Source of the DNA: an uncultured Thermoplasmata archaeon
GTDB taxonomy: Archaea > Thermoplasmatota > Thermoplasmata > Halarchaeoplasmatales > Halarchaeoplasmataceae
Reading direction: 5' to 3'
Length of the DNA stretch: 64,000 bases
Assembly: GCA_964462425.1 (NCBI GenBank)
Contig: CAYWYD010000003.1
Span: forward strand, 5,918 to 69,917
This document shows, one piece after another, positions 34,469 through 54,739 of the stretch (position 1 is the stretch's first letter; the number at the start of each line of letters is the position of its first letter). Below the pieces are notes generated by a model. It saw nothing but the letters and a program-made list of their open reading frames with translations. It did no database searches and was not told the DNA's origin. Position numbers and translations under genes: made by a program.

Positions 34469-37400
34469 TCACAATTTGTACTCGTCTTCACATACCTTTT
34501 GGTCGATCCGGTCCATCTCTCTTTCCAATTCGGGCAGTGTCATTCTCCTTTCTTTTTCTTCTTCGCCTCTCTTTCTCCAAGCTTCTACACCAAGCCTCGC
34601 GATAACTATGGCTATGACTACACCTGCAAAAACAAGATAATAGGGGATATCGAACCTTCTTATCTCAAAATTTAAGCTCACTATTTTGCTGTTACCGGCT
34701 CTGTCCCAAGCCCTCACCTCCACGGTGTGATCGCCTGCCGAGAGTCCGGCAAAAGTGTATTCCGTGTTTTCACCAGCGAGTATCCATTCTCCTTGGTCTA
34801 GCCGTATCTCGTAGTACTCTATCCCGCTGGGCTCGGCTTCGCCCTGCCATTCCACGGTGACGAATCGATCACTCAACTCCGTTCCTCCAGAAGGAGATGT
34901 GATCGTGATCTGGGGTGAGGCGGTATCGATAAGGAAAGTCACGCTTTCTTTACCCACTCTCTCACTCTTATCTACCGCCTTGACCTCAACGGTGTACTCG
35001 CCGTCCTCCAATCCCTCTAATACGTATTCGGTGGAATCCCCTATATTTATCCACTCTTCATCGACCTTTATCTCGTAGTGCTTTAGCTCGACATTTCTCT
35101 CTATATTCTCAAATACCCATCTGACGGTCACCTCGTCGGTGGAAAATATGGAGCCATCATCCGGCGAGACTATTCTGACCGGCGGCGAGGTGGCATCGAC
35201 GGTCACCGTAACGGTATCGGTCTCTCTCCAACCGGTTTTATCCCAGGCTCTAACCGAGATCTCGTACTCGCCGTCCTGGAGATCGGTCAGTTTGAATTCC
35301 TTAGCACCTCCAACATTTTCCCAATGTCTATCACAGACCCTGATCTCGTGAAAATCCGCATTTTCGGATGTCCACTTGACCGTGAAATTATCTGACCTTA
35401 TCACCTGATCTTCTTCAGGCGATATTATCTCGATCTTTACCGTCTTCACGCTGAACTCTATGCTGTCAGAATCGGAATTACCGTTATCGTCTTCCGCTCT
35501 TACCTGAACTTCGTAGTCACCGTCCTCTAGATCATCATACCTATGTTCACCTTCCTCATCGGGTTCTATCCACTTTCCTTCCTCGTCTCCTGGCCCGTCC
35601 AACTTTATTTCCACATCTTCGGCGTTCTCTACCAACCACTCTATATCGACTGAAGACCTTCTCTCCGTACTCCCGTTCTCCGGAGAGGTGATCTCGACAT
35701 TTATCCCCGGGTCTACTTGAAAATCGACACTGTGACGTGATCCTATACCGGCGTCATCTTCTCCTCGGACTTTAACTGTATGCTCGCCCTTCTGTAAGTC
35801 CTCGAATGTGTGAGTTCTTTCATCATCGACATCGATCCATTCTTCCTCGTTCAACCTGATCTCGTAATCTATTTCACCTTCTTCACCTTTTGAAGCCCAA
35901 CTAGCCGTCACCTCGGAAGAGTAAACCGTTTCTTGCTCACTAGGTTGCACTATATGTGTTCTAAATTCCTCAACAGGGTCACGTTTTACCAACGGATATC
36001 TATCTTCGCTCTCGTTTCCAGGGATCCCGTAGGACCTGTTCCATATCCCACTATCTCCCACTTCGTGAGAACCTGGATATCTATCCTTGTAGTCCGACCA
36101 ATAATTCCCTTCCTCGCCGTCGTCCCAAGAGTTATTTTTGTTATCGTAAGCCTGTCCTTCTATCTCCGCATCCCCTATTTCATCGCTGTAGAGCTCATTA
36201 TGATATATGTGATTGGGTTTGGAGCGTGTAAGATACACTCCATAAACGTGATTGTTCGAGATATTGTTCCCGAAAACAATATTCTTTTTGGAAGAGGACA
36301 TATAAACCCCGGGCCAACTGTTATTGTATATGTGGTTCTCCGCTATCACGTTTCTATCGGAATTCACCATGTAATAACCGGTGGTGCTGTTATAGAGAGT
36401 GTTGCTTTCCAAAACATTCCTATTGGAGTACCGGAGAGTGATGCTCTGCATCTGTTGGGTTACGGTGTTCTCTACGATTCGATTGTTGTCGGAAAAGCCC
36501 AAAAGTATTCCTATATCTCCGTCCTCGATCTTCTGATCTTTAACGACCATATCGGTACAATTGGCAAGGATGATCTGTGAAGCGTCTTCAGTGATGGTCT
36601 CGCCGCTCACATCTTTTCGATAAATGATGGGTTTTCCATTGACCGTATTGGACTCATCTATAGAATGGGTGTTCCAATGCTCCACCGACCTCCCCCAGAA
36701 GTGCAGGCTATCATCGATCAATTCGTTATCCTCGAAAGAGTTGCTCTCGGAAGAAAACAGGTATATGCCGTAACTATCACTGGAAACGATCCGATTACCT
36801 TCGATTTCGTTGTCGTTGGAACGTCCGATCCGCATTCCGTACCACCGGCTATGATTGATCACGTTATCATATAAACGATTCTTCTCAGAGTGTGTCAGAT
36901 AGATACCGTAATTATCATTGAAAGATTGAGTACCGCTGAGCGTGTTATCGGTGGACTTGTAAACATATATACCTATGTCATTGGTGAACAGCTCAGTTTT
37001 TTCTACGCTGTTCTTTTCTGACTCTCTGAGTTCTACTCCCTTACCGTTGTAGGACGCGTTGTTTTCAGATAGGTGGTTCTCGGGAGAAGAACTGAGCACT
37101 ATACCACGATCATGGTTGCTCACCGAATTTTCCATGAGCTCGTTGCCGTCGGATTTTTCCAACCATATCCCTCGACCATAGACCGGATAGTGAGACTTTT
37201 TAACGTGATTTCCCTCTATCTTGTTTCCAATGGATGAGGAGACATATATACCGACATGATTGTTTACCATTTTATTATCGACTATCACATTTTCAGTGGA
37301 CTCCTTCAAATGGATGCCGTAGGAGTTGAAAGAAACTTTGTTGTTCGCTAGCCTTCCGTTTTCGGTGCCGTTCAGGACCACACCGCTGTTGCCTGAACTA

Positions 37401-40400
37401 GCGTCTCCACTGCGATTCGCATCGTGGAGTTTATTGTTCTTCACTATGAAGTGATCCGAGACTTCTTCGAATGTCAAAGCCGAGCTTTCTTCCTTACCGC
37501 TCAAATCATACCATTCGATCACATAGGGATCTTCTTCTTCGCCAGTTCCTGGCCATCCTTCTTGTCCCGCCATCTCCTCCAATTCTTCGTTTCCGGTGAT
37601 GTGGATAGGATCTCTCTCTAGATAAAAGGAAAAGTCGATAGATTCGGTCACATCATCATCGATAGACCTGACTTCGATCCTGTGTTCACCGCCGTTCATC
37701 TCCTCGAAAACGTGATCGGTCTCGTTTCCAACATCTATCCAGTCCTTGTCGTTCAGCCTGATCTCGTGACCTTCAATATTATATGATATCCACCTCACCT
37801 CGAGTTCGCCCTCACCTGTGACCTCTTTGTCCTCGGGGAAGGTGATGTTCAGATAGGGTGAAGTGTCCACGGAAAAGTTCACGCTCTCGGTCACGGTCTC
37901 CGAAGTCGACCTCACGTCTAAGATATGATCTCCATCTTCGACTCCTTCGAACACGTAACTCGTATCCCCACCTACGTCTATCCAGTCCTTATCATTCAAC
38001 CTGATCTCATGGCCAGTTACATTATAAGAAGTCCACGCTGCTTCAACATCGCTCTCCCGTACGATCTCACCTTCCGCCGGAGATTCGATCCTTATATGCG
38101 GGTCAGTTTTAACGGTAAAAGTCACCGAGTTTTTGACACTCTTTTTATCCCCTACCGCTTTGATCTCTGCGGTATATTCACCATCGTCTAGGCCTTCAAA
38201 AGTGTACGAGTCGTTTTCTCCAACGTCTATCCAATCTTCCTGGCCCAATCTTACCTCGTGATATTGACTCCGTTTAGAGATCCATTTTAACTTAACGTTA
38301 GATCCCCTGATGATCTCTCCCTCCTCGGGAGATATTATTTCTGCACTAGGAACCGCGGCGTTGTAAACCGCCAAAGCGTAATCCTGGTTAGGTCGACTGT
38401 CATTGTTCGCATCCGCCGGGACGTTCGTTCCTATCACTCTCACCGTATAAGTTCCATCTTCGACCTCTTCAGACGGGATGTAAACGTTCTCCACGTTGTT
38501 CGTGTCGTCCCGACCGTCGCCGTTGGGATCGAAATCTTCCATCGCGGGAGCATCGGGTCGAGTCCAGCCCTGATCGAAGGCGTTACCATTGTAAACGCTC
38601 CCGTCGGGTGCCTTTACTTCCAGATCAAGGTCGTTCTTCAATGTTCGATTATCTCCACTTAAGGCGTTCTTGTCCGTCCATCCTAATGTTATCTTCAGTG
38701 GTTCACCCTCTCTTTCCCGCTTTACCTCGTACTCCTCCACATCGCCGGTTTCTAACGATGTTTTTTGATCTTCGAGCATGAAAGGAACCGGATCGTCTTT
38801 AGGATACTCCAGTTTAGATATGTCCACCATGCCCCAGCCTTCGTCCTTGTTCGGTATCGGCCCGGTCTCGCAGCCTCCGGAGTCGAGATCGTGGGCGGTA
38901 TTTATCAGCAGAGATCTTACCATAGCGGGACTGGGTTTTTCACCGAAGTTCTCATCGTACCACTCCACCACGACAGAAGCGGCTCCCGCTACAGCGGGAG
39001 TCGACATGGAAGTACCGGACATCCATTCGTAAGTGGCTCCTTTTGAATAGGCCGGGTGATCCAGGGAAAGTACGTTTTCTCCCGGAGCGACGACGTCGGG
39101 CTTCACCCGATTATCCTGCGTCCAACCTCTAGAACTGAATCGCGATACACTAGCAGGGTTTTCAGTATCTCCACCCCCATAATCGCTGCCGTCGGGAACA
39201 TAACTCTCAGTAGCTCCGATAGTTATCACGTTCTTAGCATTACCGGGGCTCCCGATGGTCTGCTCCTGCGCCCCTGAATTTCCCGCGGAAACGGTTATCA
39301 CCATGGGCTGATTTCCGGTCGTATTTCTATCAGCGTCTCTCACCGCTTGATCGAATATCTCGTCGGACGCAGTATATTCGCCGGCGGTGGTAGCTCCCCA
39401 CGAGTTGGTGTGAACGTAGGCGTCGGCTTCCTGCTTCGGTACTTCGATTATATCGTAGTAATCGGGATCCACCCATCCTGGATCGAATATCTTTGCAGCG
39501 TAGATTTTAGATTCGGAAGCCAAACCCTGAGCCATGTAATAGGGTCCGAAACCGGGATACTCGCCTTTCTCTCCACTTCCTTGATAGGTGTTTCCAGCCG
39601 CCGATCCAGTGGTGTGGGTCCCGTGGCCGTGACTGTCGCTCCAGTCGTCATCGTCAAGGTCTTCGAATCCGTGCCCCCCTATCACCCTACCGGTCAGGTC
39701 CGGATGTCCCGCGTCACCGATAGTTCCGTTTCCTATCCCGGTGTCTCCCACAGCTATGGTCACGTTCTCTCCAGTATAACCGAGTTGGTTGATGTAAGCA
39801 CCAAAATCACCGTATTTCCTGTAAGGAGAACCGATGTCGTCCTGCTCGTCGTCCATTATCCACGCCCCGCCGCCTATGATCTGACTTTCGATCTCGGAGT
39901 GGAGTTCGGGCTCCCGGTACTGGGAGATATAGTACACTTCTTTCATCCTAGCTAAGTTTCTCAGCTCCGCCTTAGATGTGATATTGAGAGTGAGACCGTG
40001 CTCGAATCTATCGAGTTCTTGATGATCTGAAACCGGAAGTTTTGATGCTATCGACATCACATCATCGGTGCTGAGCTCGGGATTGAATTTGACATTGACT
40101 TTGTCGGGTTCGAGTTGAGGATCAAACTTGTAAGCGGGGTGATAGATCCCGACCCAGTCCACGAACGACAAGTCTTCAACTTCTACCGCGGTCTCCGGCG
40201 TCATGCTCACTTCATAGGCGTAATTGGGGATGTAATTGATCACCTCCACGCCTTTATTCTCCAGTTCCTCTCTCCAATCGGGACTCACCGGGCCGAGCAT
40301 GTGGACGATGTAAAGTCCTTCCTTCCCGGGTTCGTATTCTTCGATGCTGAGATCGGAAGCGATCTCGGGTTCTTCTTCGGTGAAGTCGAAAGTATGTTCT

Positions 40401-40708
40401 TTGACAGATATCTCCGTACGAGCCGGTAATATATTGACCTCTACACCTCTAGACTTCAACCCATGAGCTAACTTTCCGTTTGTCTTTACTAGAGCAAATT
40501 CACCGTAGTCATGGATGACGCTGAGGTCTAAGCCACTCAAAAGGCCTTCATTCCTCAACCCTTCCATTTCCACCAATATGATCTGTTCGTCCGACTTCAT
40601 ATTTGATCTCGAGATGGGATCGATACTTCCAGCAGCAGAAACGAAGGTGGCCCCTATGATCAGAAGCGAAGATAAGAGGGTCAGTACTTTCACGTTCAGA
40701 TTTCTCAT
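34469..40708 (-). CDS. Giant (2079 aa) cell-surface protein: signal peptide, propeptide-like region, S8 subtilisin-like protease, Ig/FN3-like repeats, parallel beta-helix (PbH1/NosD-like) array, further Ig-like repeats, C-terminal TM anchor
   Basis: The S8 catalytic triad sits in VAVGDTGIGNG (D322), HGHGTHTTGSAAG (H362) and GTSMSTPAVAGAAS. There are many N-x-I-x-x-N/GIYL beta-helix rungs. Three copies of EIRLNDKDWIDVG...YTxEV... FN3-like modules are present. The C-terminus reads YYLVFAGVVIAIVIARLGV followed by RKRGEEEKERR. Confidence 0.8.
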   Translation of the reverse strand: MRNLNVKVLTLLSSLLIIGATFVSAAGSIDPISRSNMKSDEQIILVEMEGLRNEGLLSGLDLSVIHDYGEFALVKTNGKLAHGLKSRGVEVNILPARTEISVKEHTFDFTEEEPEIASDLSIEEYEPGKEGLYIVHMLGPVSPDWREELENKGVEVINYIPNYAYEVSMTPETAVEVEDLSFVDWVGIYHPAYKFDPQLEPDKVNVKFNPELSTDDVMSIASKLPVSDHQELDRFEHGLTLNITSKAELRNLARMKEVYYISQYREPELHSEIESQIIGGGAWIMDDEQDDIGSPYRKYGDFGAYINQLGYTGENVTIAVGDTGIGNGTIGDAGHPDLTGRVIGGHGFEDLDDDDWSDSHGHGTHTTGSAAGNTYQGSGEKGEYPGFGPYYMAQGLASESKIYAAKIFDPGWVDPDYYDIIEVPKQEADAYVHTNSWGATTAGEYTASDEIFDQAVRDADRNTTGNQPMVITVSAGNSGAQEQTIGSPGNAKNVITIGATESYVPDGSDYGGGDTENPASVSRFSSRGWTQDNRVKPDVVAPGENVLSLDHPAYSKGATYEWMSGTSMSTPAVAGAASVVVEWYDENFGEKPSPAMVRSLLINTAHDLDSGGCETGPIPNKDEGWGMVDISKLEYPKDDPVPFMLEDQKTSLETGDVEEYEVKREREGEPLKITLGWTDKNALSGDNRTLKNDLDLEVKAPDGSVYNGNAFDQGWTRPDAPAMEDFDPNGDGRDDTNNVENVYIPSEEVEDGTYTVRVIGTNVPADANNDSRPNQDYALAVYNAAVPSAEIISPEEGEIIRGSNVKLKWISKRSQYHEVRLGQEDWIDVGENDSYTFEGLDDGEYTAEIKAVGDKKSVKNSVTFTVKTDPHIRIESPAEGEIVRESDVEAAWTSYNVTGHEIRLNDKDWIDVGGDTSYVFEGVEDGDHILDVRSTSETVTESVNFSVDTSPYLNITFPEDKEVTGEGELEVRWISYNIEGHEIRLNDKDWIDVGNETDHVFEEMNGGEHRIEVRSIDDDVTESIDFSFYLERDPIHITGNEELEEMAGQEGWPGTGEEEDPYVIEWYDLSGKEESSALTFEEVSDHFIVKNNKLHDANRSGDASSGNSGVVLNGTENGRLANNKVSFNSYGIHLKESTENVIVDNKMVNNHVGIYVSSSIGNKIEGNHVKKSHYPVYGRGIWLEKSDGNELMENSVSNHDRGIVLSSSPENHLSENNASYNGKGVELRESEKNSVEKTELFTNDIGIYVYKSTDNTLSGTQSFNDNYGIYLTHSEKNRLYDNVINHSRWYGMRIGRSNDNEIEGNRIVSSDSYGIYLFSSESNSFEDNELIDDSLHFWGRSVEHWNTHSIDESNTVNGKPIIYRKDVSGETITEDASQIILANCTDMVVKDQKIEDGDIGILLGFSDNNRIVENTVTQQMQSITLRYSNRNVLESNTLYNSTTGYYMVNSDRNVIAENHIYNNSWPGVYMSSSKKNIVFGNNISNNHVYGVYLTRSKPNHIYHNELYSDEIGDAEIEGQAYDNKNNSWDDGEEGNYWSDYKDRYPGSHEVGDSGIWNRSYGIPGNESEDRYPLVKRDPVEEFRTHIVQPSEQETVYSSEVTASWASKGEEGEIDYEIRLNEEEWIDVDDERTHTFEDLQKGEHTVKVRGEDDAGIGSRHSVDFQVDPGINVEITSPENGSTERRSSVDIEWLVENAEDVEIKLDGPGDEEGKWIEPDEEGEHRYDDLEDGDYEVQVRAEDDNGNSDSDSIEFSVKTVKIEIISPEEDQVIRSDNFTVKWTSENADFHEIRVCDRHWENVGGAKEFKLTDLQDGEYEISVRAWDKTGWRETDTVTVTVDATSPPVRIVSPDDGSIFSTDEVTVRWVFENIERNVELKHYEIKVDEEWINIGDSTEYVLEGLEDGEYTVEVKAVDKSERVGKESVTFLIDTASPQITITSPSGGTELSDRFVTVEWQGEAEPSGIEYYEIRLDQGEWILAGENTEYTFAGLSAGDHTVEVRAWDRAGNSKIVSLNFEIRRFDIPYYLVFAGVVIAIVIARLGVEAWRKRGEEEKERRMTLPELEREMDRIDQKVCEDEYKL

Positions 40709-41200: not shown

Positions 41201-43393
41201 GTGTTCTTTCCGGAGCGCATGAAGGATCTCACCATTCTGGTCCATGATGATCACGTGGAAGACCTTATCGACTCAATACATGAGAGAGGTATAGCTGAAA
41301 TAAGTGACCTCGAGAGGGATAAAGAAGTCAATGAGGTCGTTGAGCCCATGGGCATTTCGGAGCGGATAGGTGAGTTGACGAATTATGATATCAAGTTATC
41401 CTCTATCCTTGATATCTTCGATCGATTAGAACCCGAAAAGAGCGTGATCAAAGAATTCGTCTCTCCCGAAGAGATTAAGAAAACGAGTAGAGAAGAGAAG
41501 GGTCTAAACCAAGTGATTTCAGAGATAGACGAGATGTTCGAAGAACACGGCGAGAAGATATTAGAGTTCGATGAAAAATTGAATAATATAAATAAAAAAA
41601 TGGAGGACCTCGAGCAGTTGAAAAAAGACTTGGAATTGATCTCTTTTCTAGATCTAGAACTGAGTCATCTAGGAGAATCAAAGTTCTCCGTGATAGATGT
41701 CGGCATAACAACGGATCCCTACGAGTTCAAAAAAAATATCGAGGAGTTAGAGTCGTATTTTTATGAAGTGGAAAGGACCCGGGAAGAGGAAGAGAGGTAC
41801 GTGGTGATAGCTGCGGCTTTAATAAAGGATAAAACTGAATTCCAATCTATATTGAGGCAGAGTGACGTCCGGCCTCTGAACTTGAAGGACGTCGAAGGCA
41901 CTCCGAAAGAAGCATTGGAAACTTTTTCTTCCGAAATGAAGGAACTAAAAGAGTCTAAAGAAGATGTTTTGGGAAAATTGAAGTCTCTCAAAGAGGATCA
42001 CGAGAAAGAATATCGGGCTTTAAAGGAAGAACTCGATATACACCGTGAGAAAAAGGAGATTGTTCAGAGATTCGGAAACACGGAAACAACCACGGTGTTG
42101 AAAGGATGGGCCCCGGAAAAAAATACTGAAGAAGTCGAAGAAACTGTGGAAAATGCCAGCGACGGCTATGCAGAAGTGATTACCGAAGAACCCGAGGATC
42201 CTGACGAGGTGCCCACCAAGTTAGACAATCCCAAGATGATAAAGCCTTTCGAGCTTCTAACTCACATGTTCGCACCTCCGCGGTACGACGAGATAGATCC
42301 AACTTTTATCTTGGCTCCAGCCTTCGTCATCTTTTTCGGCCTGATGCTGGGAGACGCTATTTACGGGATCTTGATAATTTTGACCTCCGTTATACTCCTT
42401 CAGGGCATCGGGAAGGTCGAGGAAGGGACAAGAAATTTTTCATTCGTGTTATTGGGAGTCGGTATAAGTACATTTATCTTCGGCATCCTCCAGGGGGGGT
42501 ATCTAGGTCCGGCGCAGGAAGGTCACACCAATCTTTTCGGCAGGTTGGGATTAGATTTCATCAACGAGATGGCCGTCTTAAAAACATTGCAGGGAGAAGG
42601 TCCTTTGGTACTTCTTATAATCTCCTTATTGATAGGTTTGTTCTATCTGAACGCCGGAATATTTCTCCAGTTCGTGAGGTATTTGAAGGATAGGAACTAC
42701 CGAGAGATCCTGAAAGAGAGCGTTTCATGGTGGACACTTCAGGCCGGGGGGGCCATACTCATATCGGGTTATCTTTTCGGATGGGATTATTTTTTCGGAA
42801 CGGAGGCGATGTTTGAACTCACAAGGACGGTCAACATCATAGGAGCTATTTTGACAGGCATCGGCCTTCTACTCATGGTGGTTCGGGCTAAGGGACTATC
42901 ATTTTTCGAGCTGACCGGATTCATAGGAGACTTTCTTTCATTCTCGAGGATACTCGCATTGGGCTTAGCTACTTCTGGGATAGCTTTGACCGTTAACGTG
43001 CTAGCGGATCTTGTTTCGAACAACTCTATCAATCTTCCGATCGCCGCGGCGATACTCATCGGCGGCTTGGCTTTAGTATTGAAAGGATTCAAAGATTCCA
43101 GCAAGCTCGAACAGACTTTGGGATCGATGGTTTCCCTTTTAGGTATTATCAGTTTCATGGGATACGCCGGGATGATAAACCCTAAAATACCGTTCTACTT
43201 CTTCGGCCTTGTGGTCATGATCGTGGGTCATCTGATCAACGCGGTACTTCAAGCTTTAGGCTCTTTCGTTCACTCTTTAAGGTTACAGTACGTGGAATTC
43301 TTCAGTTATTTCTACGAAGGCGGAGGGGCTGAATACGAACCTTTTAAGGCTGAAAGAGAGCATACCAAAATAAAAGAAGAGGTGAAAGGATGA
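41201..43393 (+). CDS. atpI: A-type ATP synthase subunit I (a-subunit, stator/ion channel)
   Basis: 730 aa. The N-terminal half is a soluble coiled coil and the C-terminal half has about 7-8 TM segments with a conserved Arg region. The stop overlaps the atpK start as ATGA. Confidence 0.85.
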   Translation: MFFPERMKDLTILVHDDHVEDLIDSIHERGIAEISDLERDKEVNEVVEPMGISERIGELTNYDIKLSSILDIFDRLEPEKSVIKEFVSPEEIKKTSREEKGLNQVISEIDEMFEEHGEKILEFDEKLNNINKKMEDLEQLKKDLELISFLDLELSHLGESKFSVIDVGITTDPYEFKKNIEELESYFYEVERTREEEERYVVIAAALIKDKTEFQSILRQSDVRPLNLKDVEGTPKEALETFSSEMKELKESKEDVLGKLKSLKEDHEKEYRALKEELDIHREKKEIVQRFGNTETTTVLKGWAPEKNTEEVEETVENASDGYAEVITEEPEDPDEVPTKLDNPKMIKPFELLTHMFAPPRYDEIDPTFILAPAFVIFFGLMLGDAIYGILIILTSVILLQGIGKVEEGTRNFSFVLLGVGISTFIFGILQGGYLGPAQEGHTNLFGRLGLDFINEMAVLKTLQGEGPLVLLIISLLIGLFYLNAGIFLQFVRYLKDRNYREILKESVSWWTLQAGGAILISGYLFGWDYFFGTEAMFELTRTVNIIGAILTGIGLLLMVVRAKGLSFFELTGFIGDFLSFSRILALGLATSGIALTVNVLADLVSNNSINLPIAAAILIGGLALVLKGFKDSSKLEQTLGSMVSLLGIISFMGYAGMINPKIPFYFFGLVVMIVGHLINAVLQALGSFVHSLRLQYVEFFSYFYEGGGAEYEPFKAEREHTKIKEEVKG

Positions 43394-45807
43394 GTTTGTT
43401 CGAAGTGGATATGGATTCAAAAGCACTGATCTTCCTGATCGTTTTGACCACGACTCTACTGCTGTCAGGCATCATAGCGACACAGGGACTAGAAAATGCG
43501 GTCGCGCAGGCTCAAGAGGACGAAGTAGAAGGCAGAGTAGACATACTGGTCTATCATAGAGAGGATGAGGAATATAGAAAAGAGGGTGATGAGATCAAAA
43601 GGTATATGTCCGGCGACTATGAAAATATAACCTTTTCATATAGGAAAGGGGATATACCAGAAGATCGTCAGTTGGAAAATATCTCTTGGAATTTTAAGTT
43701 ATTACAGTTTGATAGTACTGAAGATGACGACGATACCTTTAACAAAATTAATAAAAGTTTGAACAAGGGTGAAGTCGATGAAGGGTTGAAAGATGCTTTT
43801 GATCAGGAAGATATTGAATTAAATCAAAGTGCAGAACTTGAAAAAGAAGAAGAGGGAATTTGGGTCCTCATTGACGGCGAGGAAAAATACCAGATAGAGA
43901 AAGGAGAAAAAGAATTTGAAGTATATAGAGAGGAAGTCTTGGATGATAAATTAGAGAATATTTTTGATTTGAATCGCACAGATTATGAGGAAAGTTTTAA
44001 TGAGAGTTTGAACCAGAGAGAAATTGATGATAAGTTAAAAGAAGCTTTTGAGGAAAATGACTTCAAAATAGTAGGAGACAAACCACAACTCAAAAAAGAA
44101 GATGGTGTGTTTTGGATAATCGATGAGAATATCAAGAAATACAGGATAGAAAAAACCGAAAATGAGTTCAAAGTATATAGAGAGTACCTAGAATTCAAAT
44201 TTGAAAGGGCGGGAAAACATCACCTCACTTTAGATTTGGAATTTGAAAATGAAAACAAAACTTACAGAGACGAACTATCTATAGAGATAGAGAAGGATGA
44301 AAGAGGAACTTTCCTCACGGCTATAGGGGCAGGTCTAGCCGTCGGCATAGCGGGTATGGGCGCCGGTATCGGAGTCGGTATCGCAGGTTCGGCAGGAGCC
44401 GGGACTATAGCGGAGAAACCGGACAAATTCGGAAAATGTTTGGTTTATCAGGCCCTTCCACAGACTCAGGCTATCTACGGCTTACTGATAGCTGTCCTGT
44501 TACTGCTGTTTACAGGGGTCATTGGAGAGGGAACAACTGTTCCACTAACCTTAGGTGTGGCTTCTCTAGGCATCGGCTTAGCCGTTGGTATCGCCGGTCT
44601 ATCCGCCATAGGCCAGGGCATCGCATCTTCTGGAAGCATAGCGGCCTACAGCGAGAAGGAGGAATTATTCGGGAAGGGCATGGTATTTTCCGTCTTACCT
44701 GAAACTCAAGCTATCTACGGACTGCTAGTGGGCATACTGATCATGGTATTTACCGGGTTGTTGGGCGGCAATATCTCAGCCGATCTACTGGGCGACAAAG
44801 GTTTGGGAGTTGCCATGATAACTATCGGTGGAGGTTTAGCCGTAGGCGTAGCCGGTCTCTCCGGTATAGGACAGGGCATCGCCTCGGGAGCCGGTATAGG
44901 CAGCGTCGCGGAAAAAGAGGACCTCTTCGGGAAAGGTATGGTCTTCTCTGTATTACCCGAAACTCAAGCCATTTACGGCCTACTGATAGCGATCTTACTT
45001 ATGGTCTTCTCCGGACTGCTCGGAGGTGGAGCGATAGACGCTATGGCTGGATACTCGGGCTTTGGTCTGGGTCTTATCGGCATAGGTGCGGGCCTAGCCG
45101 TAGGCGTAGCCGGTCTCTCCGGTATAGGTCAGGGTATCGCAGCGGCTAGCGGTATAGGCAGCGTCGCGGAGAAGGAAGAGGTCTTCGGTAGAGCGATGGT
45201 CTTTTCTGTGTTACCTGAAACTCAGGCCATCTACGGCATGCTGATCGCCATATTACTGATGATATTCAGCGGTCTGTTAGGAGGAGATGGTGTCTTGATC
45301 GGCGAAAATACTAGAAGTATACAGATGTTCTTCGGATTGGTCGGTGTAGGGGCTGGCCTTTCAGTCGGTGTAGCCGGTCTCTCTGGAATAGGTCAAGGCA
45401 TCGCCTCGGGCAGCGGGATAGCTACTGTCGCGGAAGATGAGCAGATGTTCGGAAGAGGGATGGTCTTTTCCGTATTACCTGAAACTCAAGCTATCTACGG
45501 TATGCTGATCGCCATATTACTGATGGTCTTCAGCGGGATGATAGGTGGTTCGATACCTCCAGAGAATGATCCCACGTTATCCGGTATTCAGATGGGAATC
45601 GCAGCGGTTGGTGCCGGTCTCGCTATAGGTATAGCCGGCGTGTCCGGCGTAGGTCAAGGTATCACCTCGGGTTCCGCTATCGCCGCCGTGTCAAAGCGTG
45701 AAGAGACCTTCGGTAAGGGCATGATATTCAGCGTGATGTCCGAAACGTTTGCGATCTTCGGCCTGCTGATAGCGATATTCATAATCGTGTTCCTAGGGTT
45801 CATGTGA
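43390..45807 (+). CDS. atpK: A-type ATP synthase proteolipid subunit K/c. It is a fusion of an N-terminal TM, a ~300-aa acidic repeat domain and six covalently linked c-hairpins.
   Basis: There are six tandem units of GAGLAVG(I/V)AGLSGIGQGIA...FGKGMVFSVLPETQAIYGLLIAILLMVF. Unit 1 has PQTQ in place of PETQ. The start is supported by the ATGA overlap with atpI. Confidence 0.85.
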   Translation: MSLFEVDMDSKALIFLIVLTTTLLLSGIIATQGLENAVAQAQEDEVEGRVDILVYHREDEEYRKEGDEIKRYMSGDYENITFSYRKGDIPEDRQLENISWNFKLLQFDSTEDDDDTFNKINKSLNKGEVDEGLKDAFDQEDIELNQSAELEKEEEGIWVLIDGEEKYQIEKGEKEFEVYREEVLDDKLENIFDLNRTDYEESFNESLNQREIDDKLKEAFEENDFKIVGDKPQLKKEDGVFWIIDENIKKYRIEKTENEFKVYREYLEFKFERAGKHHLTLDLEFENENKTYRDELSIEIEKDERGTFLTAIGAGLAVGIAGMGAGIGVGIAGSAGAGTIAEKPDKFGKCLVYQALPQTQAIYGLLIAVLLLLFTGVIGEGTTVPLTLGVASLGIGLAVGIAGLSAIGQGIASSGSIAAYSEKEELFGKGMVFSVLPETQAIYGLLVGILIMVFTGLLGGNISADLLGDKGLGVAMITIGGGLAVGVAGLSGIGQGIASGAGIGSVAEKEDLFGKGMVFSVLPETQAIYGLLIAILLMVFSGLLGGGAIDAMAGYSGFGLGLIGIGAGLAVGVAGLSGIGQGIAAASGIGSVAEKEEVFGRAMVFSVLPETQAIYGMLIAILLMIFSGLLGGDGVLIGENTRSIQMFFGLVGVGAGLSVGVAGLSGIGQGIASGSGIATVAEDEQMFGRGMVFSVLPETQAIYGMLIAILLMVFSGMIGGSIPPENDPTLSGIQMGIAAVGAGLAIGIAGVSGVGQGITSGSAIAAVSKREETFGKGMIFSVMSETFAIFGLLIAIFIIVFLGFM
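44308..45804 (+). repeat. Intragenic tandem repeat: six units of ~240 nt, each encoding one c-subunit helical hairpin
   Basis: A near-identical nucleotide block (...ttctccgtattacctgaaactcaagc(t/c)atctacgg...) recurs about every 240 nt. Confidence 0.85.
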
Positions 45808-47946: not shown

Positions 47947-50900
47947 ATGAGAGAGGAAGCAGAAGAGAAGATCAGCAGGATGAAGGAGCCCGAGGACGAA
48001 GAAGAAGGCCGGATCATTCACGTCGCGGGTCCGGTCGTCGAAGCCGACGGTCTCAGAGGAGTCGAGATGTATGAAGTCGTGGAAGTTGGAGAAGAAGGTC
48101 TGATCGGCGAAGTCATCGAACTCGACGAAGACGTTGCGACCATACAGGTCTACGAGGAAACCGGCGGTGTGCGGCCTGGAGAACCGGTCGAAAGGACGGG
48201 AGAACCTCTTTCATTAGAACTCGGTCCCGGCCTGATCGAGCAGATCTACGACGGCATCCAGAGACCGTTAGCGGACATCGCCGAGGAGACCGGCGACTTC
48301 ATCCGCAGAGGCGTAGACGTATCTCCTTTGGACGAAAGCAGGGAGTGGGAATTCAGACCAGAGGTAGAAGAGGGAGACGAGCTGGAACAGGGTGATATCT
48401 TAGGTACCGTAGAGGAAACTAAAACTGTGGATCACAAGGTCATGGTCCCTCCGGGTAAAGGAGGTAAAGTCAAAGAGATCGTATCGGAAGGAGAATACAC
48501 CATCGATGAAACCATCGCGGTTTTGGAGAATGAAGATGGTGAAGAAGAGATAAGCATGAAACAGCGCTGGCCCGTGCGAGTGGGCAGGCCGATTAAGGAC
48601 AAAAAGCAGCCCGGCGAGCTTTTGGTTACTGGACAGAGAGTTTTAGACACTTTCTTTCCTCTCGCTAAGGGAGGTACCGCGGCTATCCCTGGGGGCTTCG
48701 GGACGGGGAAGTGCGTCACGGGAGACACCCCCGTTTTGTTCGCTGACGGCTCGAAGGAACCTATAGGAGAGGTGTACGAAGAGTACAAGTCTGAGGGTGA
48801 AAAGAAGGTCGATAACGAAGAAACACTGATCGAACTGGAGGAACCTCTCGATATACTCTCTATGGAGGACGGAAGGATAGCCGAAAAGGAAGCTACTTGC
48901 CTCTACAAAGGTAAGACAGATACGACTGTCGTGATAAATACGAAATCTGGGCGAGAAGTCGAACTCACACCTATCCATAAATTGTTCGTTCTGACTCCAG
49001 ATATGGAGATCACAGAGAAGCCCGCGGGAAAGATCGAAGAAGGAGAGACTCTACTAGCTCCAAGAAGACTTCCTATAGAGGAAAAAAGTGAAGCTGAAAG
49101 GCTGGTCGTGGAAGACCTTCTGCCCGAAAAGAGAGTCCACGGTGAAGACTTCGATAAAACGGTTGAAGCCATAGGTGACCTCGAAGAAAAGTTCGGCAGT
49201 AGGAAGACACTCGCCGAAAGATTAGATATCAGCGAAGACGTTCTTACCGAGTACGCTCTAGGAAGGAACAGACCTAAAGCGAAGGTCGCCGAGAAGATAT
49301 TTGAAGAGAAGGGGATCGATCATGAAATAAGGAACGTTAAGAGTGAAAGGAGATCTACACCCATCCAGGTACCGTCGAAATTAGACGAAGACCTTGCCGA
49401 ACTTCTAGGACTTCTACTTGGAGACGGCACTGTTAAACCGTCTACCGTCCATTTCTACAATAACGATGAAGAACTCCTGTCAAGGGTGGATGAGCTTTTA
49501 AGCGGGCTTTTCGATGTGGAAATGGAGAGGGAACACGCCCGAACGGTGGATTCGACGAAAGTCAACTGTAAAACTTTGAGAGATCTTCTTGTTTCCCTCG
49601 GCTTTCCGGAAGAGAACAAGTCGAGAAATTGTAGCATTCCAAACAAGGTGCTTAAAAGCGGAGAGGACGTGATCGCGGCCTTCGTTAGAGGTTATTATCT
49701 CGCGGACGGAAGTTTCTCCAAATACGAAGTCGAGATAAACACTTCCAGCGAGGAGATGGCCAGCGATCTGACTTATGCTTTAACGAGGATCGGCACGCCT
49801 CCAAGACTCGGTTCAAAAAACACATATGCGAATAAAAGCTACAGGATAAGGATCTCTGGAGAAGAGCTCGAGAATTTCTATGAGAAAACAGCTGCGGACC
49901 ATCAAAAATATGAAAAGATCGAGAAATATTTGGAAAAGGATAGCAAACATTTCAGAGGAATCAATTCGGTAGAAGTGTCGCCCGAACTCGTGGAAGAGAA
50001 GTTCGAAGAGAGCGGGATAACGAGAAAAGAGTTTAAAGAGAACGGCATAAAGATAGCGAATTACACGACTCAGGAAGAAAAAATGAGCGTTCCAGTGTTC
50101 AGGAAGTTCTCCTCTATGACTGCTGACGATGATCTGGTAAAAATGGCGGAGAACCATTTGGATCATTTCTTACCCGATCCGGTCGAATCCGTCGAAGTGA
50201 AAGATGAAACCAAGGATGTTTACGACTTGACAGTGCCGGAAACCCACAACTTCGTAGGAGGTAACTCACCGATGGTACTCCACAACACGGTAATTCAGCA
50301 TCAATTGGCCAAATGGAGTGACGCCGACATAGTCGTTTACGTCGGCTGTGGAGAGAGAGGAAACGAGATGACCGAAGTTCTAAGAGATTTTCCGGAATTA
50401 GAAGATCCGTGGAGCGGAGAATCGCTGATGAAGAGGACCGTCCTCATCGCGAACACAAGTAACATGCCGGTGGCGGCGAGAGAGGCTTCCGTTTTCTCCG
50501 GCATCACTATAGCTGAATATTATAGAGATATGGGTTATAACGTTGCGTTGATGGCGGATTCAACTTCCCGTTGGGCGGAAGCTTTGAGAGAGATCTCCGG
50601 GAGGCTCGAAGAGATGCCCGGAGAGGAAGGTTTCCCGGCTTATTTGGCCTCTGAGTTAGCTTCCTTTTACGAGAGAGCCGGTATCTGTGATCTTTACGGG
50701 GGAAGAGAAGGCTCAATATCGGTTATAGGTGCGGTCAGTCCTTCTGGAGGCGATTTCTCCGAGCCGGTAACACAGAACACCCTGAGGATAGTGCAGGTCT
50801 TCTGGGCTTTGGATACCGAGCTGAAGAACAGGAGACATTTCCCGGCTATCGATTGGTTGACCTCTTATTCCCTCTACCTCGACGAGGTCAGCGACTGGTG

Positions 50901-51405
50901 GAAAGATAACGTCAACGAAAACTGGAAGTCGCTGAGGAGAGAGACGATGCGGCTTTTGGAGAAAGAGTCGGAACTTGAAGAGATCGTTCAGCTGGTAGGA
51001 CCCGATGCACTTCCACCCTCCGACCAGTTCGCACTCCAGGCCGCTAGAGTGATAAGAGAAGACTTCCTGCAGCAGAACGCATTTCACGACGTTGACACGT
51101 TCTGCGAACCGGAGAAACAGTTCAGGATGCTGCAGATGATGATGCGGTTCTATGCGACCGGGCAGGAAGCTGTGGAAGAGGGTGTTCCGGTCGATGATCT
51201 ATCAGAGATGGACGTGCTCGAAAAGATCAGCAGGATGTCCAATCATCCGTCCGAAGAATACGAGGATAGGTTCAACGAGATACAGATGGAGATGAACGAG
51301 GAATTCCAAGAGTTGGAAGAGTCCCTGGAACTATCTTCTCCGCTTGAAGGCGAGGAGCCAGTAACCGAAACGGATGAAGAAAATTCTCCAGAGGAGGAGG
51401 TATAA
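47947..51405 (+). CDS. atpA: A-type ATP synthase catalytic subunit A, interrupted by an in-frame intein in the P-loop
   Basis: [11 protein letters not shown]... The P-loop PGGFGTGK is split from [11 protein letters not shown] by a 525-aa insertion. C-terminal A-subunit motifs are intact. Confidence 0.92.
48712..50286 (+). mobile_element. Intein with LAGLIDADG homing-endonuclease domain, inserted at the VMA-a (P-loop GK|T) site
   Basis: It starts with Cys ([10 protein letters not shown]...) and ends ...VLHN with Thr as the +1 residue. The two LAGLIDADG blocks are [14 protein letters not shown] and [12 protein letters not shown]. Splicing would restore GGFGTGKTV. Confidence 0.85.
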
Positions 51406-51407
51406 AG

Positions 51408-52796
51408 ATGAGCGACGAGATGTCTAAAAGGACCGAATATCAGAATGTCACGGAAGTCTCCGGACCGCTGATGGTGGTGGAGGGTATAAGCGGAGTCGCC
51501 TACGACGAGATAGCTAAGATCAAATTGCCGAGCGGTGAAGAAAGATTGGGTCAGGTCCTGGAGGCGGAAACCGACAGGGCCGTGCTTCAGGTCTTCGCCG
51601 GTACGAGAGGACTGGATACCGACGAAACGAGCGTCCAGTTCACAGGAGAAGTGATGAAGTTCGGAGTCTCTAGAGAGCTTTTAGGTAGAGTTTTCAACGG
51701 TATAGGCGAACCCATAGACGGAAGTCCCGATATAATCCCCGAGGAGAGAAGAGATATAAACGGAGATCCGATAAATCCCTCGACCCGGGAGTACCCTAGG
51801 GAGTTCATCCAGACCGGTGTTTCCACCATAGACGGTATGTTGACCCTGGTGAGAGGACAGAAATTACCGATATTCAGCGCCTCCGGACTTCCACACAACA
51901 GTTTGGCGGCTCAGATAGCGCGGCAGGCCGAAGTCCTCGGCGAGGAGGAAGAATTCGCGGTGGTTTTCTGCGCCATGGGTATAACTGCGGAAGAGGCCAA
52001 CTTCTTCAGGAGAGACTTCGAGAGGACCGGCGCCTTGGAACGATCGGTTTTATTTTTGAACCTGGCGAACGACCCGGCGATCGAGAGGATAATAATCCCG
52101 AGGATGGCTCTGACCGCCGCCGAGTACCTCGCTTTCGAAGAGGACATGCAGGTCCTGGTGATCATGACCGATATGACGAATTATTGTGAGGCGCTGAGAG
52201 AGATAGCTGCTGCGAGAGAAGAGGTGCCCGGTAGAAGAGGGTATCCAGGGTACATGTACACCGATCTGGCGAACATCTACGAGAGGGCCGGGAGAATCCT
52301 GGACAGAGAGGGTTCCATAACGATGATCCCCATACTGACGATGCCCGACGACGATATAACTCATCCCATACCCGATCTTACCGGTTACATCACTGAAGGA
52401 CAGTTGGTCTTCTCGAGAGAACTGCACAGGAAAGGGATAAGGCCTCCGATAACCCCAGGAGAGAGCCTTTCTAGACTGATGGAAGAAGGTATAGGCGAAG
52501 AGAGAACGAGAGAGGACCATTCCGACGTGAGCAACCAGCTTTATGCGGCCTATGCCGAAGGTCTAGACCTGCGTGATCTCGTGGCTGTCGTCGGAGAAGA
52601 GGCATTGAGCGATAGAGATCAGCTTTACCTGGATTTTGCCGAGGAATTCGAAGAGAACTTTATACACCAGGGTGAAGAGGAAGACAGGACTATAGACGAA
52701 ACTCTAGACCTGGGTTGGGAACTTTTGACCGCTATACCGAAGAAAGATCTCAAGAGGATCGACGAGAAGTGGATCGAGAAGTATTATCCCGACTGA
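51408..52796 (+). CDS. atpB: A-type ATP synthase subunit B
   Basis: [16 protein letters not shown]... and [10 protein letters not shown]-like segments are typical of the non-catalytic B subunit. It starts 3 nt after atpA. Confidence 0.92.
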
Positions 52797-54081
52797 GCGG
52801 CTTTGACAGGTGCCTTCTGGCCGTGACCGGGGCCTCGTACCAACCTTCGGTCAACTCTCTTTCAACTTTTTTTTTCCTGACCTCATTTTCATCGGCTCTA
52901 GTACTGCATCTTTTACACCGGTAGCCCGCATCTTTGCCTATAGAGGACATCGATCTTCCACATTCGGGACATTTTGGATTGCCGACCTTTACTACCTTTT
53001 CTTCCAGTTCTAAGATTTTCATCTTCTCTATATTAAGGGTCAAAGGCTCCTTTCGGATCCCGCCCCACAATTCTACCCTGTCGCCTTCGATGAGTTTTTC
53101 CACCACCTTTCTAAAATCCTTGGTCGGCTCGTAGGCGGCGGCGGTGATCTTATTTTTTTTATCCTTTTCTTCCCCCACCTCGAACAGTACGTGGCCTCCT
53201 TCGATGTACTCCGGCTCGGAAGAGACTTTGCCCTTGACTCTTGCGGAAGTCCACGGTTCTATTTCAGAGAGAGCTGCCTCTTGGATATGATCATCGGTAG
53301 CTTGGTTGGTCAAAAAAGTGACCCACCTTTGAGGTCCTTCACCCCCTATGATATCTAAAGCCCCTTTCAATTCTTCGGGATCGTCTCCCCTGACACCGTA
53401 AAGAACGGGACAGGGGGATTTAGGGGCGATCATCTGTCTTTCCTCTTCATGATCGTAATTATCGAAAGTATGGTTGGTTCTTCTATCGAACTCTTTGACG
53501 TCTTCTTCAAGAATCCTTCTCGAAGCACCCCACTTTTCTTTCTTTCTGTAGGTCAAAAGTTCGTAAGTGAAATCGTCCGGTCTCCAGGCCAGGGCCGAAG
53601 TGGCTCCGATCAAACCCCGTTTCTCTCCGTATCCCTTGTAGGTGTGATCGTTCTCGTCTAAAAAGTTCAATATCTCTTCAAGCTCCACTACGTCCTTGAC
53701 CGCTCTTTCATAGATCCTTCTAGGAGGCCTTTCCTCTGCTACCACGAAGCCCGGGTTGGTTTTTTCACTATCGAATTCACTCCATCTTTCCACTACGTCT
53801 TTCACTCTCTGGAAGACGTTTTCATTTCTTGTAGATACACCTTCGAAGAGTGATACTTCGTCACCTATCTCCCCAATATTTCTCTTCTCTTTTTTCCCCC
53901 GACCTAGAGTTATTACTATGGCCCCGTTACCCCTAGTCTTCCAGGGCACGTTGGGATTCAGTCTTACTAACCGTGGATAATCTAAAAGGTCATATTCCTT
54001 GAACTCTTTTATCAGTTCGGTGGCTAAAAAGGTTGTACACATCCCTTTTCTAGAATCCGTGTCGTCGACAGCTATGAACAT
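52750..54081 (-). CDS. tiaS: tRNA(Ile2) 2-agmatinylcytidine synthetase TiaS
   Basis: The N-terminus [23 protein letters not shown]...[19 protein letters not shown] matches the TiaS kinase-like domain. The C-terminal zinc ribbon is CPECG...CKRC. The start was placed at Met16 of the track ORF. Confidence 0.8.
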
Positions 54082-54082
54082 A

Positions 54083-54739
54083 TCACTGTATACGCCCGCA
54101 GTTTTTGCATCTGTACCTTTCTTCACTTATACTAGTCAGTTCTCCTCCACATTCTCGGCACCGCTTTTCTTCCTTCTCCTCCTGCACCTCCTCCTTCTCT
54201 TCTCCCCGCTCATGTCCGAAAAGATGGTCGTCCAGGTACTCTCTAACGTGGACCGGTTCACCTCTGCTTCTCACGGTGGTCTCCGCTATCCTATCTAGAT
54301 ACCGCTGTCTCGGATCGCCTTCGGTCATCATGCCTGCGACCCAATCCAAAAGCAAAAGTATGCCGTGGAGCTTACTGAAGTTCCTTATCAATGCTTCCGA
54401 CATGTAGAAATCCTGAGTGAGCTGCTCCACTTCAAGTTTAAACAGTGCTTTCCCCACCGTCTTACCGCTGTAATATTCTAAAAGGGCGGAATAAAAGACC
54501 TGTACCATGCCGGCGGTCATCGGGAAGTACCAGAACATGTCGTACTGTAACTTGAGAGTGACCAGAAAGAAGAATACCCAGTAGACGAATACGGAAGAGA
54601 GGATAAAATCGATGATATAGGCTATCAATCGCTTTACCCAGTGCTTCTGCAACGGTCTGTTGTTGTGAAGGAGATCGAAACCGGTTACCATGACTATCCC
54701 GTATTCTTTAATACCCTCAGACTGCCCATCACTCATCAT
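54083..54739 (-). CDS. RDD-family membrane protein with C-terminal zinc ribbon
   Basis: The RDD motif residues are KRLIAYIIDFIL...GKTVGKALFKL...RQRYLDRIA. The C-terminus reads CRECGGEL...CKNCG. Confidence 0.5.
   Translation of the reverse strand: MMSDGQSEGIKEYGIVMVTGFDLLHNNRPLQKHWVKRLIAYIIDFILSSVFVYWVFFFLVTLKLQYDMFWYFPMTAGMVQVFYSALLEYYSGKTVGKALFKLEVEQLTQDFYMSEALIRNFSKLHGILLLLDWVAGMMTEGDPRQRYLDRIAETTVRSRGEPVHVREYLDDHLFGHERGEEKEEVQEEKEEKRCRECGGELTSISEERYRCKNCGRIQ

Follow-up and report, generated by a model that had tools for sequence, protein, structure and literature searches.

A tandem pair of unnamed domains nested in the PKD/Ig-like extension of an archaeal ATP synthase c/K subunit

The c-rings of rotary ATPases are usually pictured as bare membrane cylinders, and the only documented parallel that we found to a rotor bearing a sizeable external domain is the non-covalent Ac45/PRR core of the mammalian V-ATPase, in which the glycosylated, beta-rich luminal domain of Ac45, together with PRR, forms the c-ring's core and rotates as a rigid body with it (PMC7414150). 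Multi-hairpin rotor subunits are represented by that of Methanopyrus kandleri, to which a passage of PMC2359735 citing Lolkema and Boekema 2003 attributes a monomeric rotor of 13 hairpins with a full Na+ site in each. Here, we describe the product of atpK, a gene for an A-type ATP synthase c/K subunit carried by a 64,000-nucleotide stretch of DNA from an uncultured Thermoplasmata archaeon (assembly GCA_964462425.1, contig CAYWYD010000003.1, positions 5,918 to 69,917; the whole stretch is hereafter called the window). This protein contains tandem modules of an unnamed family, nested in the PKD ectodomain of a six-hairpin c/K subunit, and we consider it probable, on balance, that they ride on the rotor as a non-catalytic surface element.

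The Methanopyrus-type proteins resemble the window protein in having several fused ATP-synt_C hairpins, Na+-type Q/ET motifs and an A-type operon context, but in them hairpin 1 is preceded by about 5 residues and no ion site is lost, whereas the window protein has a predicted-exported extension of 306 amino acids (aa) and a carboxylate-free hairpin 1. Closer are the fusions of a PKD domain to a c subunit in Thermoplasmatota (P0001, P0047 and P0103 among our matches), which agree with the window protein in signal peptide, PKD ectodomain and junction motif as well as in the pattern of hairpin sites and the position in the operon; they differ in lacking the module and in having extensions of 96-178 aa. 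Full-text searches for PKD in combination with c subunit, rotor, subunit K or Thermoplasmata found no paper on such a fusion, which, given the incomplete coverage of the literature, is absence of evidence only. As for Ac45 (ATP6AP1) and PRR, the likeness that we infer, an exoplasmic glycosylated domain that sits at the ring and turns with it, is functional only: Ac45 and PRR are separate, eukaryotic type-I membrane proteins with helices inside the ring, the window domain is a covalent part of the c polypeptide, and a relationship in sequence or fold was neither tested for nor found. A tandem repeat is by itself an ordinary kind of event; the interest of this one lies in the decorated rotor and in a new, promiscuous domain.

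A tandem repeat within the ectodomain of atpK

The atpK product is an 805-aa protein (open reading frame, ORF, 43390..45807, + strand) whose frame is open throughout and whose parts are as follows.

43390..43515, + strand: predicted N-terminal signal peptide/membrane anchor, residues 1-42, with n-region MSLFEVDMDSK, h-region ALIFLIVLTTTLLLSGIIA and AVA/AQA motifs in the c-region, as read from the sequence
43516..43695, + strand: N-terminal half of the PKD/Ig-like (immunoglobulin-like) ectodomain, residues 43-102, with ENISWNFK at its end corresponding to WDFGDG; aligns with the PKD domain of P0001 and 22 further homologues (alignment A6)
43696..43938, + strand: module 1, residues 103-183, profile core 122-179; strand beta1 LLQFD, two helices and a four-stranded meander ending in EFEVYREEV
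43939..43956, + strand: short acidic inter-module linker, residues 184-189; predicted local distance difference test score (pLDDT) below 50 across residues 182-207, that is, the linker and the start of module 2
43957..44187, + strand: module 2, residues 190-266, profile core 205-263; from strand beta1 IFDL to EFKVYREY
44188..44307, + strand: C-terminal half of the PKD/Ig-like ectodomain, residues 267-306, LEFKFERAGKHHLTLDLEFENENKTYRDELSIEIEKDERG
44308..45807, + strand: six ATP-synt_C hairpins (12 transmembrane helices) with ion-site motifs PQTQ, PETQ, PETQ, PETQ, PETQ and SETF

The tandem repeat in this protein is real. The segments first reported as similar (residues 117-266, or 43738-44188, with the quoted peptides found in the translation) align by composition-adjusted BLASTP between residues 117-183 and 199-266 with 27/63 identities (43%), 71% positives and one gap (E 2e-15). 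The Smith-Waterman score of module 1 against module 2 is 146, compared with 34.9 +/- 6.4 and a maximum of 76 for 2000 shuffles of module 2 (z = 17.4), and when module 1 is compared with 68-aa windows from the operon's other acidic proteins, no score exceeds 46, so that the repeat is not an effect of composition. A hidden Markov model (HMM) of the module family, described below, scores 66.9 bits on residues 122-179 and 51.8 bits on residues 205-263; the profile was built mostly from other proteins but takes in both window copies, so that this support is not fully independent. The same model found no match beyond the two atpK copies in a six-frame translation of the window. At the DNA level, overall identity between the copies is about 65%, and two segments of 55 and 48 nucleotides (nt) recur within the block as direct repeats, 78-79% identical and spaced by 249 and 252 nt. 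This spacing gives a true period of about 83 aa, around a conserved core of 58-75 aa.

The host is a rotor subunit. Six matches to Pfam PF00137 (ATP-synt_C; E 9.3e-95, with 311 bits over a cut-off of 24) fill the protein from residue 312 up to its C-terminus, and the gene lies in an operon of the order atpH-I-K-E-C-F-A-B, as assigned by NCBIfam. Hairpins 2-6 have an ion-site glutamate, in four PETQ motifs and one SETF, while hairpin 1 (PQTQ) is carboxylate free. The atpK ATG overlaps the atpI stop codon (ATGA) and is preceded by a GAGGTGA motif; the sole internal methionine near the hairpins, M323, falls inside the first membrane helix, so that no internal start spares hairpin 1, and atpK is the only c-subunit gene in the window. 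Together, these features show that extension and hairpins are one gene product. An identical record exists in a second assembly (GCA_905333205.1, contig CAJOTI010000169.1, 100% identity over 4193 bp).

The position of the pair within the extension is revealed by the closest relative, P0001, encoded at locus L001 of a Thermoplasmatota metagenome-assembled genome, which is colinear with the window at nucleotide identities of 81% upstream and 89% downstream. Between these flanks lie 174 nt in L001 versus 645 nt in the window, and nucleotide homology is lost from residue 74 to residue 288. The extension of P0001 consists simply of a PKD domain, about 100 aa long (Pfam PKD_4, 32.8 bits against a cut-off of 27); ENISWNFK, which ends at residue 102 of the window protein, stands where P0001 has SIEWDFGE, and about 165 additional residues separate the two PKD halves in the window protein. 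The Pfam PKD models (PF18911/PF00801) match neither the whole window protein nor its two halves joined in silico, so the PKD label rests on homology to relatives that pass the Pfam threshold and on the fold. In a model of the whole ectodomain, made with PKD homologues only (A6), the PKD halves have pLDDT 82-96 (82-95 in the N-terminal half, whose strands are all beta) and match PKD/Ig domains, giving an Ig-like beta sandwich with a WDFGDG-type motif. The module pair is nested in the variable loop that follows this WDFGDG-like motif. The loop after W-x-F-G differs in length among homologues, and in P0080, another PKD-c subunit, the equivalent loop holds a short internal duplication (EVKWEFGDGD twice), which makes this loop an indel hot spot.

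The original prediction, a reading of the DNA letters made without database searches, had described an acidic domain fused onto atpK and containing two tandem modules of about 68 aa. The homology of the two segments is borne out by the quantitative self-alignment, and the identification of the host as a rotor subunit holds as well. Other parts need rewording: the size fits the conserved core and falls short of the repeat period, and an acidic extension is indeed present, of which the modules are an insertion inside the PKD/Ig-like ectodomain and not the whole. The acidity is pronounced, with a net charge of -29 over the 164 residues of the insert and of -41 over the 263 of the ectodomain, in which aspartate and glutamate make up 31% of residues, an acidic extreme. 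Since most soluble proteins of the window have isoelectric points (pI) of 4.3-5.3, acidity is largely a proteome-wide trait, and the source organism is probably a halophile.

An unnamed and promiscuous module family

An exhaustive phmmer search with residues 108-268 retrieved 25 other protein clusters at E <= 1e-3 (best 2.9e-11), all of which contain the module. An iterated HMM collected 59 copies, with 1-5 per protein, often in tandem. Module length in the family is about 58-75 aa, and the core consensus, EDLDKGEISEELRQAFEDNGISLSENAKVEKEEGKKWLIIDGEKKYIIRKEEEKLKIY, is preceded by an LFSLD-like strand. The core positions, kept in at least 90% of the 42 modules compared, are all found in both window modules. 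Nearly invariant positions are hydrophobic only (L, F, W, Y), which argues against an enzyme. The structure prediction called for earlier, run with the family alignment (A2), yielded a confident model of the module (pLDDT 90.2, predicted template modelling score, pTM, 0.73) with the topology b-a-a-b-b-b-b, whose fold is unassigned; two-layer alpha/beta sandwiches such as the RalF capping domain, KA1 domains, profilins and TBP-like folds are among the closest known comparisons. We conclude that the module, of about 75 aa, is a non-catalytic alpha/beta domain that folds autonomously and belongs to a widespread unnamed family.

The original prediction spoke of a small domain of unknown fold and function, and this is upheld by the searches, which gave no named family and no clear structural relative. 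No Pfam or NCBIfam model covers the module in the window protein or in its relatives, no known family is common to more than 2 of the 42 modules, PADLOC has no match to the module family, the module profile returned only noise from PDB sequences (E 1.9), and Foldseek against viral structures gave no match at E <= 0.001. The SH3-like domain of TagH (PF22269) was considered and rejected, as it matches module 2 only, at 26 bits against a gathering threshold of 27, and gives any match in just 1 of the 42 modules. A cluster look-up provided almost no names for module-bearing proteins, and a word-indexed homologue search with alignment A2, too insensitive for this family, returned nothing. Stand-alone homologues, which the original prediction had proposed to seek, could not be established: the two short candidates, P0023 (69 aa) and P0009 (131 aa), begin with leucine and look like truncated gene calls.

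What the family offers instead of a name is a wide range of partners. The module is joined to pentapeptide repeats, archaeal TBP, DUF2254, the type VI secretion system (T6SS) protein DotU and a MobA/MobL relaxase, to Sacsin/HATPase (TmtA-like) regions, to CARDB and Big_7 surface domains, and to dCache with HAMP. In P0014 it lies inside a Usp domain, and in P0018 inside a P-loop NTPase region beside a SIR2 (ThsA/LmuA-like) domain. From this diversity of partners, and from the Usp and NTPase insertions, it follows that the family is found on both sides of the membrane and has been nested repeatedly. In the set P0014, P0018, P0019 and P0010, all from other organisms, the module further precedes or lies within a dCache sensor and, in an archaeal TBP, occupies the N-terminus. 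Compared with nested domain insertions in general, the atpK case is alike in placing a compact domain in a surface loop of its host, as also in the Usp domain of P0014 and the NTPase of P0018, and differs in that the inserted family is undescribed and the host is the ectodomain of a rotary-motor subunit.

The rotor ring and the location of its extension

A whole-protein search listed 120 c-subunit homologues, to which the following counts refer. An N-terminal extension of at least 95 aa is present in 51 of them, with lengths of 96-178 aa compared with 306 aa in the window protein, and these extended homologues have 4, 6 or 12 hairpins, apart from one with 13 and a shorter sequence with 5. Many have recorded Pfam PKD matches, and the architecture of signal peptide, PKD and hairpins recurs; the database names of some, whose sources are Thermoplasmata and Candidatus Saliniplasma, include 'PKD domain-containing protein' and 'V-type ATP synthase subunit K'. 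In Thermoplasmatota genomes from metagenomes, fusions of signal peptide, PKD ectodomain and c subunit are widespread (P0045-P0143). The module is absent from the 119 other listed homologues, the family HMM matching only the window protein (as P0028); the insert is, as far as these sequences tell, unique to this lineage among them. A word-indexed search with the N-terminal 303 aa retrieved P0001 only.

The hairpins follow a strict pattern. Hairpin 1 is carboxylate free in all 51 extended homologues (PQTQ, or AQTQ in two; proteins P0027-P0143), and in 45 of the 51 the middle hairpins have PETQ and the last SETF. The 12-hairpin proteins P0030-32 read as two fused six-hairpin units. Units of 4, 6 and 12 hairpins suggest a fixed ring of 12 hairpins, with one dead site per unit, and the ring of the window organism would then consist of two polypeptides with two ectodomains and ten carboxylates. 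Relatives with hairpins about 97% identical have no insert, from which the module pair appears to play no part in ion translocation and to be dispensable for rotary catalysis.

In F-, V- and A-type rings, the loop of each hairpin faces the cytoplasmic stalk and the termini face the opposite side, and the first helix of each hairpin belongs to the inner ring. The signal-like segment of atpK ends in AVAQAQ, and the 51 extended homologues likewise have hydrophobic N-termini ending in A-x-A; cleavage of the signal peptide is predicted on this ground. The ectodomain contains 7 N-x-S/T sequons in 265 aa, whereas 0.94 +/- 0.92 are expected from its composition and none of 2000 shuffles reached 7. Sequon density is 0-0.3 per 100 aa in the cytoplasmic ATPase subunits and averages 3.9 in the ectodomains of the 51 listed homologues, and modules 1 and 2 have a sequon at an equivalent position (NKS and NES). 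The signal-like segment, the sevenfold enrichment in sequons and the known topology of the rings together place the ectodomain outside the cell, where it is probably N-glycosylated.

Our current working model builds on these features. The N-terminal signal sequence would export the extension, which would stay outside, tethered to the first, inner-ring helix of hairpin 1. Two polypeptides would assemble into the 12-hairpin ring, with the two ectodomains held above its outer mouth, away from the interface with subunit I, and turning with the ring. The module pair, having arrived as a block of foreign DNA or having been duplicated soon after insertion, would use its exposed sheet for binding, spacing or shielding, as an accessory module of the surface.

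Several other features of the window were recorded. Directly upstream of the ATPase operon, 34469-40708 (- strand) encodes a 2079-aa acidic secreted protein with a subtilase, NosD/beta-helix repeats and many Ig-like, PKD and Y_Y_Y domains. Downstream, in 51408-54126, no atpD follows atpB, and what comes next is a minus-strand gene, tiaS (tRNA-Ile2 agmatidine synthetase), which overlaps the end of atpB by about 45 nt. Opposite the modules, at 43824-44198 (- strand), two antisense ORFs of 51 and 71 aa, rich in Ser, Phe and Leu, mirror the GAA/AAA-rich coding strand and are not considered genes. A search of the window against Rfam gave no match.

Origin of the pair, rival explanations and implications

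The GC content at third codon positions (GC3) of the block 43608-44307 is about 0.32, with a range of 0.30-0.375, compared with 0.535 +/- 0.062 in in-frame windows of the same size from other ORFs of the window and 0.466 in the corresponding segment of L001. Such low values point to the import of DNA and suggest that the block is foreign; as nucleotide homology to L001 is lost over residues 74-288, the imported piece may be larger and include parts of the PKD strands. Scans of genome and metagenome DNA with the N-terminus and the insert as queries returned only the L001 locus or nothing, and no donor was found. Elsewhere in the window, GC3 falls to this level only in the island 592-2895 (GC 0.35, GC3 about 0.30-0.37), which encodes an N6-adenine methylase of the Eco57I/MmeI type and an unannotated basic protein of 341 aa, and which is probably a horizontally acquired restriction-modification system. 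An intein or mobile insertion was considered for the insert and rejected: no intein or endonuclease family matches it, and no flanking direct or inverted repeats exceed chance length. An intein was readily detected in atpA of the same operon (47947-51405, + strand, 1152 aa), with a LAGLIDADG endonuclease domain at about residues 264-780.

How the pair arose within this history is finely balanced. That one module entered the PKD loop and was then duplicated in tandem within atpK is a serious possibility, to which we give somewhat less than even weight: modules 1 and 2 are reciprocal best matches among the 42 modules, they share a C-terminal motif EF-x-VYRE that other family members lack, and their sequon position is common, as are the DNA segments of 78-79% identity. 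The score of 148 between them is, however, only slightly above the next-best scores of 129 and 136 with modules of unrelated proteins, and the copies have diverged to 43% protein and about 65% DNA identity, whereas the relative that has no insert is 81-89% identical in the flanks. Moreover, tandem arrays are the usual state of the family, which makes the import of a ready-made pair equally simple. The term "duplicated" used in the original prediction thus holds for the presence of two homologous copies and does not require duplication in place.

Other explanations concern the extension as a whole. It could be a removable pro-domain or assembly aid for membrane insertion or ring composition that is cleaved later, so that nothing rotates outside. 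In the mammalian V-ATPase, furin cleaves Ac45 and PRR in their luminal parts (PMC7414150), and the junction EIEKDERGTFLTA before hairpin 1, highly conserved in close homologues, could be a processing or docking site; we nevertheless judge this explanation unlikely, because the strong family-wide enrichment in sequons argues for a long-lived exposed domain and the operon encodes no protease, the giant subtilase-containing protein upstream lying on the other strand. Very unlikely, in our opinion, is a role of the acidic ectodomain and its modules as a cation-collecting surface, an antenna for Na+ or H+ near the outer half-channel of subunit I. The net charges given above and the Q...ET-type motifs of the hairpins, which are associated with Na+ binding, would fit such a role, but acidity is general in the proteins of the window, relatives with almost identical hairpins have no insert, and module family members from other organisms are not notably acidic. 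In addition, from known rings, an N-terminal helix in the inner ring would be expected to hold the domain over the mouth and not at the a/c interface. Finally, the sharp change in composition at the block and the metagenomic source of the assembly might evoke an assembly chimera, a misjoined ORF or repetitive low-complexity sequence. An artefact of this kind is hardly credible, given the open frame with both flanks in the same gene, the identical record in a second assembly, the good profile scores and intact core residues of both modules, the confident module model and a similarity far above the composition controls.

Our preferred reading, that of tandem modules riding on the rotor as a non-catalytic surface element, has points against it as well. 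The module also occurs in clearly cytoplasmic proteins (the TBP, Usp, relaxase and SIR2 fusions), so that the family has no compartment-specific role that could be transferred to atpK, and its conserved polar residues suggest no ligand or partner. The low GC3 continues into the PKD strands on either side, and a local bias in codons or amino acids may be part of its cause, and the second assembly record, which may come from the same sample, is a weak independent confirmation. In the model made without the module alignment, module 2 and the inter-module linker are poorly modelled, module 2 with low confidence. Signal cleavage and glycosylation are deductions, as are the ring stoichiometry and the location above the ring mouth, and the account is weakest where it assigns the pair a role as an accessory element for binding, spacing or shielding.

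A broader reading would join these elements, although we hold it to be rather doubtful. It would see here an undescribed class of archaeal A-type ATP synthases, with a ring of fixed units (three of 4 hairpins, two of 6 or one of 12), a dead first site in each and a covalent, glycosylated PKD cap rotating outside the cell. The modules would belong to a new promiscuous family that repeatedly nests in loops of unrelated proteins on either side of the membrane. Capture of the pair in this lineage would have provided the cap with a new binding surface, which might, for instance, hold envelope components or counter viruses that have the cap as their receptor.

The module family is missing from Pfam, NCBIfam and PADLOC, and its members are found in proteins of defence-like, transcription, secretion, sensor and surface types; naming and characterizing it would improve the annotation of many metagenomic proteins. 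As for the rotor, the window protein and at least 50 relatives bear a sizeable exported, probably glycosylated domain on the rotor polypeptide itself. If the ectodomain stays attached, the assembly of the ring, the nature of the occupant of its outer mouth and the sensing or use of rotation outside the cell become testable.

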